38,867 nucleotides of DNA from Candidatus Woesearchaeota archaeon (GTDB lineage: Archaea > Nanobdellota > Nanobdellia > CAZGMV01), in contig CAZGMV010000001.1 of NCBI GenBank assembly GCA_964526875.1, positions 1 through 38,867 of the forward strand. Reading direction: 5' to 3'. Position numbers and translations under genes: made by a program. A model generated the notes under the pieces. That model saw only the letters and a program-made list of their open reading frames with translations, made no database searches and was not told the origin of the DNA. Shown piece by piece: positions 3,266-11,977 of the stretch; position 1 is the stretch's first letter, and each line of letters starts with the position of its first letter.

Positions 3266-3526
3266 ATGCCTGAAGAAAGATTTATCAGTAAGATCCTTTA
3301 TGGTAAAACAATTATTAGTAAAGCTGGAAGAAAGTTTGGTGAAGTAGGAGATTTAATTTTTGAAGTTAAAAGTGGAGAATTACTTTATATTGTAGTAAAG
3401 AATCCAACAGAATATGTAGAACATTTAAATGTTGATAAAGATCAAGAAGGAAATCCTTTAATTCCTTTTAGTTCAGTAATTGCAATAGGAGACTTTTTGG
3501 TTGTTAATGAAGAAGAAATAATTTAA
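3266..3526 (+). CDS. PRC-barrel domain protein
   Basis: 86 aa. The pattern GKTIISKAGRKFGEVGDLIFEVKSGELLYIVV is typical of archaeal PRC-barrel proteins. Confidence 0.55.
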   Translation: MPEERFISKILYGKTIISKAGRKFGEVGDLIFEVKSGELLYIVVKNPTEYVEHLNVDKDQEGNPLIPFSSVIAIGDFLVVNEEEII

Positions 3527-7043: not shown

Positions 7044-7083
7044 TTCTATTTAATTTTTTAAATTTTAATTTATATTTTCTTAA

Positions 7084-7136
7084 ATGATGAAGTAAACCCC
7101 GGCTGAAAAAAATGATGATAAAGGGGTAACTGCTGA
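7084..7136 (+). ncRNA. C/D box sRNA (2'-O-methylation guide)
   Basis: C box ATGATGA (7084-7090), 12-nt guide AGTAAACCCCGG, D' box CTGA (7103-7106), 5-nt loop, C' box ATGATGA (7112-7118), 14-nt guide TAAAGGGGTAACTG, D box CTGA (7133-7136), then T6. It lies in an ORF-free spacer. Confidence 0.7.
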
Positions 7137-7140
7137 TTTT
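7109..7140 (+). repeat. Direct repeat copy 1 (32 nt, 3' half of the C/D sRNA)
   Basis: AAAATGATGATAAAGGGGTAACTGCTGATTTT matches 8281-8312 at 31 of 32 positions. The single difference is G7126 versus A8298. Confidence 0.85.
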
Positions 7141-7142
7141 TT
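7137..7142 (+). terminator. Oligo-T terminator of the C/D sRNA
   Basis: T6 lies immediately after the D box. Confidence 0.5.
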
Positions 7143-7193
7143 AAGTTTTCAATTTGTTTATAAAAGTTTATTTTTAGAAATAATCAAGCTAAA

Positions 7194-7763
7194 TTATTCT
7201 AGTATCCTTAATTTTTTCATTTTTTCTAAGATTTCTTTTTTATATTCGCAGTAGAAAGTTTTGCAATTATTTAATATCTCAAGTAATAAATTTTTATCCA
7301 ACTTATTTAAAAGAAATTCTATATCTTTTTTATCCCTTTCATTAAATCTTATCAACTTATTCAAGAAAATAATTTCATCCACTAATTTTGGAATAATAAC
7401 ATCTCTAAATCTAATTTCTTCTATATAAAAGCAGTTAAATGGTCTAAAATCTATTTTAAGTTTTGTAATTTGATTACTTCTATTTAAAATCTCTAACTCA
7501 AACATATTTTTGTGTATAATCTTGTCTCTATAATCTAAGGCTACCTCATCTATCAAATTACTTAAGAAACTCCTAATAGTTTTTGTTTTCACTGTTGGAA
7601 GATATTTTAAATCAATGTCATAGGAAGGCCTATGCCAGTATTTCAACATTAAAGAAGTACCTCCTTCTAATGCAAGATTTTCTCTTAAATTAGAACTAAA
7701 TATCTTGATTATCAACTTTTCAATTATTTCAGAATGTGGAGAAGGAAGATATTTTTTAAGCAT
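7194..7763 (-). CDS. AbiEii/DUF1814-like nucleotidyltransferase (type IV toxin-like), short form
   Basis: Pol-beta NTase signature LALEGGTSLMLKYWHRPSYDIDL (GG/S...DxD). The C-terminal LNKLIRFNERDKKDIEFLL resembles the AbiEii K..R..RD..D motif. Confidence 0.5.
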   Translation of the reverse strand: MLKKYLPSPHSEIIEKLIIKIFSSNLRENLALEGGTSLMLKYWHRPSYDIDLKYLPTVKTKTIRSFLSNLIDEVALDYRDKIIHKNMFELEILNRSNQITKLKIDFRPFNCFYIEEIRFRDVIIPKLVDEIIFLNKLIRFNERDKKDIEFLLNKLDKNLLLEILNNCKTFYCEYKKEILEKMKKLRILE

Positions 7764-7784
7764 TAAAATTAAATCTAAATCAAA

Positions 7785-7792
7785 TTTATAAA
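7785..7792. promoter_or_regulatory. Shared palindromic TATA box TTTATAAA for divergent genes 7763(-) and 7814(+)
   Basis: The octamer centre lies 25.5 nt from both start codons in a 50-nt spacer. Confidence 0.55.
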
Positions 7793-7813
7793 ATTAAATT
7801 TCTTAAATAATAA

Positions 7814-8287
7814 ATGGTTAAAAGGATAATTTATTACCCTATATGGAACGAATTCCAAAACAGAGAAAACTTTATTCAATCATCAACGCAGGCGTTGGAT
7901 ATAACATCATTAGATTCAATTAGAATAACCAAGAACGACTTAAAATTCATTAAACCGGTTTATTCATTTGACGATTTTAGGGTTAAAATTTTAGTTAAAA
8001 TAATTGAGAGATATATTGATAAATTTGAAAAAGATGATAGAGAATTTATTTGGAATTTAGAAGATTTTATTAATGATTTAAATAAACTAAATGAAGAGTG
8101 CGACATCTTTTGGGTTAAAGGATTTTATGAACATTACAACAAAATAGAGCAATTGTTCAAAAAATATAACTATGACACTAAAATCCTTAAAAAAATTTAT
8201 AATGATTACAAAAACTATTATGAAAGATTAAAAAAAACGAATTTTAAACCAGTGGTTGTTAAAGTTAAGTCCTTTAATTTAAAATGA
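7814..8287 (+). CDS. Hypothetical protein, cassette partner of the AbiEii-like gene
   Basis: 157-aa ORF with no recognisable domain. Its stop codon TGA (8285-8287) lies inside direct repeat copy 2. Confidence 0.4.
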   Translation: MVKRIIYYPIWNEFQNRENFIQSSTQALDITSLDSIRITKNDLKFIKPVYSFDDFRVKILVKIIERYIDKFEKDDREFIWNLEDFINDLNKLNEECDIFWVKGFYEHYNKIEQLFKKYNYDTKILKKIYNDYKNYYERLKKTNFKPVVVKVKSFNLK

Positions 8288-8312
8288 TGATAAAGGGATA
8301 ACTGCTGATTTT
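8281..8312 (+). repeat. Direct repeat copy 2 (half C/D unit: C box, 14 nt, D box)
   Basis: AAAATGATGATAAAGGGATAACTGCTGATTTT. No upstream C/D' half is present, so it looks like a displaced partial copy. Confidence 0.85.
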
Positions 8313-8455
8313 AAACGGCAAAAAACAAACCTTTTAGTACAAATAACAGCTGTGAAGAATCAAAATCCATGCTACCTGACAACATAGAAAAGATTTTAAG
8401 AGGTTATTCTGTTTAGAGAATAAATATTTATTAACTAGTCTTAATAAGGAAAAAA

Positions 8456-9241
8456 ATGGCTAGAAAATTAAAAAAATATTTAACTAAATTAGGTTATTTT
8501 AGTTTGGTTAGTTCTTATTTTGGAGGTATGGGTGTTTTAGGTTTAATTTCCTTGCCAGAAGTATTAAAAGATTATAAAGAAAAATCTAAAAAAATAATAG
8601 TAGGAGGTTATTTAGCTTTGTTAAGCTTTTCTACTACTTTATATGGTATGGTTAACACTATAAAAGGAAATACTTATTATGAACGTGTTGGAAAAATCGT
8701 AGATCAAATAATTAAAAAAGCTGAAAAAAAGGAAAAGGAGCTAGAAAACAAGTTATTATTGTATGCAAATAAAAAAGATAAAAATAATGAAGATGTTGTA
8801 ATATTTACTATTAAGAAAAAAATTGATGACGGGTTTTTCAGTTATGAGAAGATGTATAAGGTAATTGTGGAACCATTACCTTTTTATCAACCTTTAAGGG
8901 AAAATTTTGAAAAGTTTAAAGGAAATATTAAAGAAAAAGACGCACGAGCTATGAAATATTTCTATTCTTTACCACTCGTGAATTTGGTTGTTATTGCAGA
9001 TGATTTGTGGAATAGAAAATTTGGAAATTATAAAAAAGAAAAAGAAGAGTTAGAAAAAATGTATGAAGATTGGTTAAAAAAACAAGAAAATACATTTGAA
9101 GAATTGATAAAAAGAAAAGATGAGAACATTTATCATGTTATCTTAGAAGATAAATATGGATATCAACAAGATTCATTTTATACAATGGCTAAAAGTAAAG
9201 AAGACGCTAAGAAAAAAATTAAAGAATTATACAACATCTAA
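8456..9241 (+). CDS. Hypothetical membrane-anchored protein
   Basis: Two N-terminal hydrophobic helices followed by a K/E-rich soluble region. No domain recognised. Confidence 0.4.
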   Translation: MARKLKKYLTKLGYFSLVSSYFGGMGVLGLISLPEVLKDYKEKSKKIIVGGYLALLSFSTTLYGMVNTIKGNTYYERVGKIVDQIIKKAEKKEKELENKLLLYANKKDKNNEDVVIFTIKKKIDDGFFSYEKMYKVIVEPLPFYQPLRENFEKFKGNIKEKDARAMKYFYSLPLVNLVVIADDLWNRKFGNYKKEKEELEKMYEDWLKKQENTFEELIKRKDENIYHVILEDKYGYQQDSFYTMAKSKEDAKKKIKELYNI

Positions 9242-9850: not shown

Positions 9851-10759
9851 ATGGATAAATTAACTTATTCAATTATTTTTGGTTTAATTAGCTCATTCTT
9901 ATTTCCTTTAACAAACATATTAGACAAAAAAGGAATAAAGCATTTTAATTCTCTTTTATTTGCTATAATTAAAAGTTGTTCCAATGTTCTTCTTTTGTTT
10001 TCTATTACTTGTTTTATATTAAATGCAAACTTCTCCTTAATTTTTAAAATTCTAAAAAAGAACCTTATTCTTGTCTTCTTAGGCATAATGACTTTTTCTT
10101 TGTCATATTTATCTTTTTTGGAATTAATTAAATCAAAGTACTTAATTAAAATTGAAGCCCTTTTATCTTTCTTTTCTTTGGTAATATCAATTTTTATTGG
10201 AATTTTGTTTTTCAATGACAAGCTAACATTTTTAATTTTATTTTCGTTAATTTTGACTATCTTTGGAATTAGCTTAATTAACAACTTAGATTTTAAAATA
10301 GTTAAAATTCTAAGTAAAAAAGAGTGGTTTTTGTTTTTAATAATGCTTGTTGGCTTTAATTACCATCCTCTTTACACAACCTATTTCTCTAAAAAATTAA
10401 ACAGCCCTATTTTAGGTGTTTTCATAGGAGAAGGAACAACTTTTATTTCTAATTTAATAATCCTATCCATTTTCATTTTTAAAAAGAAAATTAATGGAAA
10501 TGTGAAAAACATCAACTTTTATAAATTAAAATACCCACTTCTTTCGTCTTTTTTCTTAGTAATTGCTTTTATTTCTTTATTCACTGGGACAACTAAGGGA
10601 TTTTACTCAATCACATCTGTATTGTCCTATTTATCTCTTTTATGGCTTTCTTTATTCGCACATCTATTCTTAAAAGAAAAATTAAGTTTAAAACAGTATC
10701 TTGGAGTTTTATGTTTGGTTATTAGCTTGATATTAATAAAAATATTAAATTTAAACTAG
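9851..10759 (+). CDS. EamA/DMT-family transporter
   Basis: About 10 hydrophobic helices in two similar halves, and a length of 302 aa. Confidence 0.6.
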   Translation: MDKLTYSIIFGLISSFLFPLTNILDKKGIKHFNSLLFAIIKSCSNVLLLFSITCFILNANFSLIFKILKKNLILVFLGIMTFSLSYLSFLELIKSKYLIKIEALLSFFSLVISIFIGILFFNDKLTFLILFSLILTIFGISLINNLDFKIVKILSKKEWFLFLIMLVGFNYHPLYTTYFSKKLNSPILGVFIGEGTTFISNLIILSIFIFKKKINGNVKNINFYKLKYPLLSSFFLVIAFISLFTGTTKGFYSITSVLSYLSLLWLSLFAHLFLKEKLSLKQYLGVLCLVISLILIKILNLN

Positions 10760-11977
10760 TTCACCATAACCAATTAACCTCCACCTATTTCCTTTTCTTC
10801 TTGAAATTGCTAATTTATCACCTTTCTCCCCAACAATAGGATATTTAAGCTTTAAGGTTATTTTGTTATCCTTAATATTAGTTATATAACCAACAGTAGG
10901 GATGTTATTTATATGTATTAATAGAATTTCGCCCTTTTGTAGAGGTTGTGTAATTAATTCATCTTTTTTATTAACCAATCTTTTCAATAAATGATATTCA
11001 AAAGTAATGTCCATTTTAGTTTCAGGCAATTTTCCAGGTAAACCAATTACATTTCCTAACAATCCATCAGATTTTGTTATTGAAGGATCTAAAGTAGTTG
11101 ATAAAGCCACACTACCTCCAGGTGTAGCTTCTTTAATTCTTTTTTCCCCTGAATAAATAGCAGTTACTTTAGTCACAATAGGTTCCCAAACAATTTGTCC
11201 TTTTTTCAATTCTTTTTTTAAACCAGGCCTTATTTCAATTAAGTCTCCTTCTTTTATTACTCCCTGCTTTAAAGCCCCTCCTATAACACCTCCAACCAAA
11301 TTTTCAATAGAAGTTCCTGGTTTATTAACATCAAAAGTTCTTGCAATGTAAAAAATAGGGTTCTTAGTTAAATCTCTTTTAGGAGTTGGAAAAAATTCTT
11401 GAATAGCTTCTAAAAGCAAATCAATATTTATTTTTTGTTGTGCTGAGACAGGAATTATAGGAGCATTTTCAGCAATAGTTCCTTTAACGAATTCCTTTAT
11501 TTCCTTATAGTTTTCTAAAGCTCTTTCTTTGCTAACTAAGTCAATTTTATTTTGGACAATAATGATGTTCTTTAAACCCATAGCTTCTAAAGCCATCAAA
11601 TGTTCTTCTGTTTGTGGTTGTGGGCATTTTTCATTAGCAGCAATAACTAAAATAGCAGCATCCATAATAGTAGCTCCTGAAAGCATGGTAGCCATTAGAG
11701 CCTCATGCCCAGGAGCGTCTACTATTGACACAACTCTAACCAATTCAGTTGATTCTCCATTTGGACCAAGTTTTGAAGTAGTATATTTAATTTCTCCTGT
11801 TTCTTTATCTTTATATTTTCTAATTTCAACATTTGCATAACCTAATTTAATAGTAATACCTCTTTTTAATTCCTCTGAGTAAGTATCTGTCCATTTTCCT
11901 GACAAAGCATGTGTCAAAGTGGTTTTTCCATGATCTATATGACCAACCATTCCTATATTCAATTCTGGTTTTACCAT
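10751..11977 (-). CDS. eif2g: Translation initiation factor aIF2 gamma subunit
   Basis: NIGMVGHIDHGKTTL P-loop, DAPGHE, NKIDL, and three-domain EF-Tu-like length (408 aa). Confidence 0.95.
   Translation of the reverse strand: MVKPELNIGMVGHIDHGKTTLTHALSGKWTDTYSEELKRGITIKLGYANVEIRKYKDKETGEIKYTTSKLGPNGESTELVRVVSIVDAPGHEALMATMLSGATIMDAAILVIAANEKCPQPQTEEHLMALEAMGLKNIIIVQNKIDLVSKERALENYKEIKEFVKGTIAENAPIIPVSAQQKINIDLLLEAIQEFFPTPKRDLTKNPIFYIARTFDVNKPGTSIENLVGGVIGGALKQGVIKEGDLIEIRPGLKKELKKGQIVWEPIVTKVTAIYSGEKRIKEATPGGSVALSTTLDPSITKSDGLLGNVIGLPGKLPETKMDITFEYHLLKRLVNKKDELITQPLQKGEILLIHINNIPTVGYITNIKDNKITLKLKYPIVGEKGDKLAISRRKGNRWRLIGYGELV

Follow-up and report, generated by a model that had tools for sequence, protein, structure and literature searches.

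Background

Integrative elements are known to occupy the 3' part of small RNA genes. Genes of tRNA are the sites of archaeal elements of the SSV and pNOB8/pT26-2 types, phages of bacteria reside in genes of tRNA or tmRNA, and phiEf11 in ffs, the gene of 4.5S RNA (PMC8371274; PMC12540744). Among tRNA genes, archaeal integrases favour the 3' end as their target, and the gene is left with one intact copy (PMC8371274). Here we describe a locus in a 38.9-kb stretch of archaeal chromosomal DNA (hereafter, the window), in which the 3' half of a candidate box C/D small RNA (sRNA) gene recurs downstream as a 32-nt direct repeat. The two copies bracket a cassette of 1.17 kb with two divergent genes, one encoding a nucleotidyltransferase (NTase) and the other a partner protein of 157 aa. 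The host is an uncultured DPANN (Woesearchaeota-like) archaeon of hydrothermal vents.

The locus has a number of features in common with the integrative elements of RNA genes. The direct repeats correspond to the 3' part of the RNA gene, the intact gene is situated at one end and an orphan part at the other, the repeat length of 32 nt is in the usual range, and the cargo is accessory. Unlike in these elements, the target here would be a C/D sRNA gene, and the cassette spans 1.17 kb only, lacks an integrase and consists of the two-gene module alone. The review of archaeal recombinases never mentions sRNA (PMC8371274), and the term "box sRNA" occurs in none of the papers listed by a search on integrases and attachment sites. 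The closest bacterial analogue that we found is the phage attachment site in ffs (PMC12540744).

In six Pyrobaculum genomes, C/D sRNA genes duplicate, leave pseudocopies (one of them 2.5 kb from the parent) and exchange single guide halves, yielding "transposed" and "composite" sRNAs, and the stop codon of an upstream ORF (open reading frame) is provided, in 23 cases, by the C box of the sRNA that follows it (PMC6009581). The locus described here resembles this plasticity (Lui et al. 2018, PMC6009581) in that a guide-half copy lies near its parent, a stop codon is supplied by a C-type box, and the copies are found at the 3' ends of ORFs. However, the Pyrobaculum copies are whole two-guide sRNAs or obvious pseudogenes and were not reported to bracket accessory genes, whereas here a bare half frames a portable gene pair (PMC6009581).

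The gene pair can be compared with two groups of toxin-antitoxin systems. AbiEi-AbiEii is a type IV toxin-antitoxin system, and mycobacterial MenAT is also a system with a DUF1814 NTase toxin. The pair shares with AbiE and other DUF1814 systems a Pol-beta-type NTase core, the motif G[GS]...DxD...D, and the organization as a module of two genes in which a small partner is closely linked to the NTase. It differs from AbiE in that the NTase is shorter by about 50-100 residues and matches the family in the N-terminal core only, while the partner has neither a winged helix-turn-helix (wHTH) domain nor a match to AbiEi. The gene order is different as well, as all three instances of the pair are divergent on one TATA box, whereas AbiE is a bicistronic operon with the antitoxin gene first. 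In HEPN-MNT systems (HepT-MntA, type VII), the minimal nucleotidyltransferase AMPylates and silences the toxin. These systems also combine a minimal nucleotidyltransferase with a small all-helical protein; however, the partner described here lacks the Rx4-6H motif and has no match to HEPN families or folds, and the NTase matches AbiEii and DUF6036 rather than NTP_transf_2.

The nucleotidyltransferase and its partner

The NTase gene occupies positions 7194-7763 of the minus strand and encodes a protein of 189 aa, assigned to a minimal AbiEii/DUF6036 type by Pfam and PADLOC searches and by alignment. The sequence-only reading of this DNA had proposed an AbiEii-like NTase, and profile searches agree with it. 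The Pfam family AbiEii (DUF1814, PF08843) is matched with 29.9 bits at a threshold of 22.5, and the match covers residues 24-81 (profile positions 9-66 of 238), that is, the N-terminal core only. The family DUF6036 is matched with 28.3 bits at a threshold of 23.6 and nearly over its full length (residues 16-179, profile positions 8-149 of 164). Seven AbiEii profiles of PADLOC match the NTase, the best at 1.8e-6. In the alignment of three NTase homologues, the pattern GGTS (33-36)-x11-DID (48-50) and D104 are invariant. A search of the NTase profile against PDB gave no sequence match, and no mention of DUF6036 was found in the literature searched. The AlphaFold2 (AF2) model based on a two-sequence alignment is too poor for use (predicted local distance difference test, pLDDT, 57). 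Given these matches, the protein is best described as a predicted minimal nucleotidyltransferase of the AbiEii/DUF6036 group, rather than as a canonical AbiEii. The Logan assembly of run ERR2021503 is broken inside this gene, away from either repeat copy, with a gap (7354-7407) between a contig that runs to 7353 and another that begins at 7408; this gap is bridged in the ENA assembly of that run.

The partner gene occupies positions 7814-8287 of the plus strand, and its 157-aa product was characterized by family search, alignment and AF2 modelling. An exhaustive phmmer search of 1.84e9 proteins yielded four representatives of the family, and their alignment revealed a conserved N-terminal motif, PIWNE-x4-RENYIQSS. 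The AF2 model is confident (pLDDT 85) and all-helical, with nine helices. No fold match to it was found in PDB (by Foldseek) or BFVD, and no family match to the protein in Pfam, PADLOC, NCBIfam or PHROG. No HEPN family is matched either, and the invariant R17 is not followed by an invariant histidine, so that there is no Rx4-6H motif. Thus the partner is not an AbiEi protein, and not a HEPN protein either. A comparison with AbiEi or other antitoxin folds had been suggested for it, and the profile and structure comparisons do not support AbiEi with its wHTH fold.

A portable gene pair with a shared TATA box

These genes lie 50 nt apart, and a perfectly palindromic TATA box, TTTATAAA, was identified in this gap by sequence reading at positions 7785-7792. 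As had been stated earlier, it is centred: its midpoint is 25.5 nt from the start codons of both genes. Such spacing implies two leaderless divergent mRNAs. The palindrome is a candidate promoter driving both genes.

Related pairs were observed in two metagenomic contigs. In L001 (ENA, 4.5 kb) the divergent NTase and partner are 55% and 42% identical to those of the window, and in L096 (JGI, 24 kb) the respective values are 47% and 34%. All three loci have an intergenic gap of 48-51 nt with a single TTTATAA(A/G) element situated 24.5-26.5 nt from both starts. At the same time, the three neighbourhoods have no gene in common. As the divergent pair and its TATA geometry recur in unrelated contexts, the pair is a self-contained portable unit, and the earlier suggestion that the NTase and the 157-aa protein form one module is borne out by these two loci. 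Judging from sequence comparison, the conserved unit is a pair of leaderless genes on a single TATA box, and this is the main new result of the present study.

Both families are extremely rare, with a patchy distribution and differing contexts. No relatives of the NTase or the partner were found in GTDB representative genomes and IMG/VR, no match for either protein by tblastn in PLSDB, no match for the NTase, which was the only query, by tblastn in INPHARED, and no relatives of the module in PHROGs.

A fourth homologue of the partner was observed in contig L098. There, an unrelated ORF on the same strand abuts the start of the gene, and no divergent NTase is present, although the contig starts just 105 nt upstream. 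The partner gene in L001 (positions 3340-3480, minus strand) stops at codon 107, because one base is missing from a T5A6 run. Beyond it, the other frame continues without interruption to the natural stop and encodes a homologue of the C-terminus of the 157-aa protein, and the adjacent NTase is intact. This break of the frame may be a sequencing error, a recent frameshift or a case of recoding. In L096, a second divergent pair was found 4 kb from the module (positions 10243-11116), formed by a minimal nucleotidyltransferase of 133 aa (Pfam NTP_transf_2/Polbeta) and a partner of 139 aa that matches no family. Defence or toxin-antitoxin genes may be numerous in this stretch of L096.

The box C/D sRNA gene

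The candidate sRNA gene is located at positions 7084-7136 of the plus strand, and it was delineated by sequence reading, Rfam alignments, box pattern and fold. All four boxes exactly coincide with the consensus (C, 7084-7090; D', 7103-7106; C', 7112-7118; D, 7133-7136). The D' guide (7091-7102) has 12 nt, the D guide (7119-7132) is slightly long with 14 nt, and the linker between the D' and C' boxes has 5 nt. The gene is directly followed by a run of six T (7137-7142). The complete C-D'-C'-D pattern occurs once in the window and in none of 300 Markov simulations, and the half-mer C/D pattern occurs three times, with 0.09 expected from such simulations. The region 7080-7138 could be aligned to 13 archaeal C/D sRNA families of Rfam, mostly over the full length. 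All these alignments score below the gathering thresholds (12-20 bits versus 36-60; the best is 20.1 bits, E 0.12-0.3). However, the C/D families are guide-specific, and hence such scores are no argument against the class. The assignment to C/D sRNAs, made initially by eye, is thus upheld by the four boxes, the Rfam alignments and the simulations. The architecture is that of a full archaeal box C/D sRNA.

The predicted fold includes a terminal stem with a z-score of -2.2. It is formed by CUUAAA/UUUAAG (7079-7084 pairing with 7140-7145) and is weak, being all A/U. The stem draws on bases just outside the first repeat copy, on the cassette side. The "original" flank beyond the second copy, AAACGG, is unable to form it.

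No match to the guides was found in the two tRNAs or in the rest of the window, and there is no convincing match in 16S or 23S rRNA of E. coli, which is not the rRNA of this organism; no rRNA is present among 1.16 Mb of loci retrieved. The D guide together with the D box (GGGRTAACTGCTGAT; 7123-7138 and 8295-8310) resembles a universally conserved segment of 23S rRNA, GGGGATAACAGGCTGAT (E. coli 2444-2460). As the likeness is in the sense rather than the antisense orientation, this segment is not a guide target, and the similarity is probably due to chance. Genes for L7Ae, Nop5 and fibrillarin are not encoded in the window.

The repeat pair

The first repeat copy (7109-7140, plus strand; AAAATGATGATAAAGGGGTAACTGCTGATTTT) is formed by AAAA, the C' box, the D guide, the D box and TTTT, that is, by the 3' half of the intact sRNA. 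The second copy (8281-8312, plus strand) is an orphan C'-guide-D half with a G to A substitution at 8298. The copies coincide at 31 of 32 positions, the sole difference being G7126 versus A8298 at guide position 7 counted from box D, and the similarity breaks off sharply at either end. The sequence-only reading was correct in the coordinates of the copies, in the single G/A difference between them and in the absence of a 5' half from the second one, as no C or D' box was found upstream of it. The 24-nt core pattern with at most three mismatches has just two sites in the window, with none expected from 100 shuffles, and the possibility of a chance repeat was rejected on this basis.

Other origins of such a pair were considered. 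A target-site duplication made by a transposase was rejected, since a repeat of 32 nt exceeds the length of such duplications, and neither terminal inverted repeats nor a transposase is present. An integron attC site was rejected on sequence reading, as no core of the GTTRRRY type was seen and IntI is absent.

The only genes between the copies are those of the NTase and the partner, in agreement with the earlier description of two divergent genes; in addition, there are two antisense shadow ORFs. The stop codon of the NTase gene is 53 nt from the left repeat. The stop codon of the partner overlaps the right one: as had been noticed before, it is supplied by the repeat, the TGA at 8285-8287 lying within the C' box of the second copy. 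The geometry is also as described, with an intact gene at one end, an orphan 3' part at the other and both in direct orientation.

The flanks of the second copy extend the A/U complementarity of the unit. The segments UUUAAAA (8278-8284) and UUUUAAA (8309-8315) may form a 7-bp stem abutting the boxes, and the chance of the three additional complementary bases is about 0.034. The stem consists of A-U pairs only and is energetically insignificant (z -0.34).

The second copy is followed by a spacer of 143 nt (8313-8455), identified by sequence reading, which ends at the gene of a 261-aa protein. Most of it (8313-8415, about 100 nt) contains no ORF, no significant fold and just a noise-level Rfam match (E 8). 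Such a spacer is unusually long here, as the genes of this genome mostly abut or overlap. Completion of the second copy by downstream boxes (GUGAAGA...CUGA, 8354-8379) was considered and rejected: it would have a 45-nt spacer, a 17-nt guide and no terminal stem, and the sole support is the Rfam match with E=8.

Origin of the repeats

One possible explanation, which we put forward tentatively, is an insertion of the 1.1-kb module at the sRNA gene's 3' half, an event that would have left the repeat pair. In the starting state, the sRNA gene would have been situated just downstream of a PRC-barrel gene. The incoming module would have comprised the minimal AbiEii/DUF6036-type NTase and the 157-aa helical partner, with leaderless mRNAs transcribed from one shared TATA box. 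A single crossover would then have occurred between the chromosomal sRNA gene and the incoming DNA, probably circular, that carried a 32-nt C'-guide-D copy. The crossover could have been either site-specific, catalysed in trans, or homologous. As a result, the intact sRNA would remain on the left (7084-7136) and the orphan 3' half on the right (8281-8312), the latter now giving the stop codon of the partner. The region 8313-8455 would be the original downstream flank of the sRNA gene together with the promoter of the 261-aa protein gene.

Several observations are consistent with insertion. What recurs is the sRNA's 3' half, it has direct orientation and lies downstream of the intact gene, and the pair of copies frames the portable unit exactly. 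The near-identity and sharp ends of the repeat, the recurrence of the pair with its TATA spacing in other contexts, the patchy distribution of both families, the intact NTase motif and the known preference of archaeal integrases for tRNA genes agree with insertion as well. The cassette genes are mildly atypical: by the fit of codon usage they rank 8th and 9th of 50, and the GC content of their third codon positions (GC3) is 0.22 and 0.26, the median being near 0.165.

The same geometry admits another explanation. The second copy could have arisen by partial duplication of the sRNA nearby, at the 3' end of the next ORF on that strand, and would be either a pseudocopy or a single-guide C/D RNA that works on its own and can be expressed by read-through. 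The bracketing of the gene pair would then be coincidental, with no bearing on the arrival of the two genes. We regard this, too, as possible, and as nearly equal to insertion. Duplicates, pseudocopies, exchanged guide halves and stop codons within C boxes all have precedents in Pyrobaculum (PMC6009581), and both repeat copies directly follow the 3' ends of plus-strand ORFs. The repeat unit is exactly AAAA-C'-guide-D-UUUU, and with the stem added by the flanks of the second copy it is shaped like a single-guide C/D RNA standing on its own. On the other hand, a free partial duplication could involve either half, either orientation and either side, so that just two of the eight arrangements would mimic the geometry of integration, and the duplicate would need to hit precisely the distal border of an independently portable unit. 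The stem, as mentioned above, is insignificant, and the guide of the second copy is one base off the parent. Half-mer C/D RNAs methylate poorly in vitro, and this speaks against a stand-alone role of the second copy. Finally, the 38.9 kb contain just one sRNA gene and one half-copy, and thus show no sign of an expanding sRNA family.

Duplication of the sRNA gains from two negative results that at the same time weigh against insertion. Firstly, no integrase, transposase or recombinase family is represented in the cassette or among about 50 ORFs of the window; the absence of an integrase had been noted from the beginning. Secondly, the other two copies of the module, in L001 and L096, have neither flanking repeats nor an adjacent RNA gene, and only the copy in the window has them.

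The insertion model is also weakened by the following observations. The cassette is present in all contigs from five samples, no empty site was seen, the repeats are invariant, and the density of single-nucleotide polymorphisms is similar to that of the flanks. The overall GC content of the cassette is the same as that of the flanks. The repeat is a self-contained stem-C-guide-D-stem RNA unit, and the flanks of the second copy lengthen the stem; if the unit is read in this way, its shape would fit a duplicated functional RNA as well as an attachment site. As regards a cassette of the AbiE kind, its partner protein, AbiEi, is not what the second gene encodes, and instead of an operon there is a divergent arrangement. 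The partner in L001 is seemingly frameshifted beside an intact NTase, which would be awkward for an essential antitoxin.

The samples with this population are ERR2021503, JGI 3300041922, 3300007771 and 3300028838, and ENA FORT21-1. Contigs were looked up by exact protein sequences (the NTase, the 261-aa protein, the PRC-barrel protein and SUI1), and every contig with the flanking genes is 99.7-100% identical to the window and has the cassette, that is, one population with a filled site was observed. The 105-aa version of SUI1 gave no record in this look-up. The empty-site junction expected under the insertion model is CCGGCTGAAAAAAATGATGATAAAGGGRTAACTGCTGATTTT immediately followed by AAACGGC, the sRNA being directly joined to position 8313 onward. 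The junction pattern had no matches in JGI metagenome contigs. However, the collection does not contain even the filled locus, and therefore this negative result is uninformative. A relaxed pattern of the repeat gave two chance matches in coding regions of the JGI contigs (L099 and L100), and the repeat pattern had no match in GTDB representative genomes. The Logan contigs of ERR2021503 run unbroken through both repeat copies, which argues weakly against a coexisting empty site or circle in this sample.

It is also conceivable, though hardly likely, that the cassette is a remnant of a larger integrated virus or plasmid with its own integrase, which used the 3' half of the sRNA gene as the attachment site, and that deletions spared the addictive two-gene module. 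The geometry of the repeats would be the same as in the insertion model. Toxin-antitoxin modules often outlast the elements that carried them, which agrees with such a history, and the unexplained 100 nt at 8313-8415 could be debris. Against this stands the compactness of the locus: there are just two intact genes, 53 nt and 0 nt from the repeat edges, and no gene fragments. Therefore deletions would have required precise trimming on both sides. Besides, searches of IMG/VR, PLSDB, INPHARED (with the NTase) and PHROGs yielded no relatives from viruses or plasmids.

The most far-reaching form of the insertion model is that the C'-guide-D half is a genuine attachment site and that a 1.17-kb integrase-less circular cassette, with a new defence or addiction module of NTase and partner as its sole cargo, recombines into C/D sRNA genes with a recombinase acting in trans, that is, an integron-cassette-like system in DPANN archaea. 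We consider this improbable. If it were the case, a further role of the orphan half may be that of a kink-turn (K-turn) element at the 3' end of the partner mRNA.

Overall, an integrated defence cassette is plausible. The repeat geometry, the portability of the pair, and the codon usage and GC3 of its genes favour the original proposal of integration into an sRNA gene, whereas the absence of repeats at the other two copies of the module tells against it and sRNA duplication of the Pyrobaculum type offers an ordinary alternative.

Function of the module

By family, the module resembles NTase-based pairs of the toxin-antitoxin or abortive-infection kind, and such a role is the most likely one for it, with one of the proteins predicted to be toxic. 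The NTase would nucleotidylate RNA or its partner, and the partner would control the NTase. Three defining features of AbiE could be assessed: an NTase with an intact motif is present, but the partner type and the operon layout are different.

The roles may also be reversed. As in HepT-MntA, the NTase could be the antidote or modifier, and the 157-aa protein the effector. We find this doubtful, though a number of observations point to it. The size of the NTase, 189 aa, is closer to that of minimal NTases than to full AbiEii, and the match to DUF6036 is nearly full-length while that to AbiEii is confined to residues 24-81. In L001 the partner looks broken and the NTase is intact, which would be the usual route of decay for a pair with the partner as the toxin. 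The homologue of the partner in L098 has no divergent NTase upstream, within the 105 nt that the contig covers. On the other hand, neither a HEPN signature in the partner nor a structural match to PDB chains was found, and the NTase matches just families annotated as toxins or as unknown. Thus the family matches favour the role of an AbiEii-like toxin, whereas the apparent frameshift in L001 and the short length of the NTase favour that of an MntA-like modifier.

Genomic context

The window is AT-rich (about 24% GC) and has a number of core genes, namely those of aIF2-gamma, SUI1, aIF1A, a Dph5-like methylase, a Nob1-type PIN protein, the CCA-adding enzyme, RpoH, FEN1, Rrp4, ThrRS, S19e and TFE. 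Identical and near-identical contigs come from hydrothermal-vent and related metagenomes. By aIF2-gamma, the closest GTDB genomes are metagenome-assembled genomes of Woesearchaeota/Nanoarchaeota with at most 60% identity, and no synteny around the locus was found in them.

The PRC-barrel gene is directly upstream of the sRNA gene. The next gene after the cassette (8456-9241) encodes the 261-aa protein mentioned above, with hydrophobic N-terminal segments followed by a charged, coiled-coil-like remainder. It has no homologue except itself among 5.8e9 clustered proteins, no family match and no match in GTDB representative genomes.

One of the contigs, L094, has 23 differences from the window. 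Eight of them cluster at positions 2380-2707, forming a local hotspot of strain variation, and the hotspot includes three non-synonymous changes within 45 nt of the HAD-hydrolase gene.

Conclusions

Regardless of the origin of the repeats, the locus adds a new two-gene module, in which a minimal NTase of the AbiEii/DUF6036 type is combined with a partner that has no match to a known fold. The layout of this module, with a single palindromic TATA box for two leaderless divergent genes, is unusual and conserved.

If the second copy arose by duplication, the locus would be a case of ordinary C/D sRNA plasticity and its first instance in a DPANN lineage. If the module was inserted, box C/D sRNA genes would join the genes of tRNA, tmRNA and 4.5S RNA as targets of integration. 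In that case, a recombinase-less cassette of barely 1.2 kb would move between archaeal genomes, and this would bear on the way in which the tiny genomes of DPANN archaea gain defence and addiction genes.

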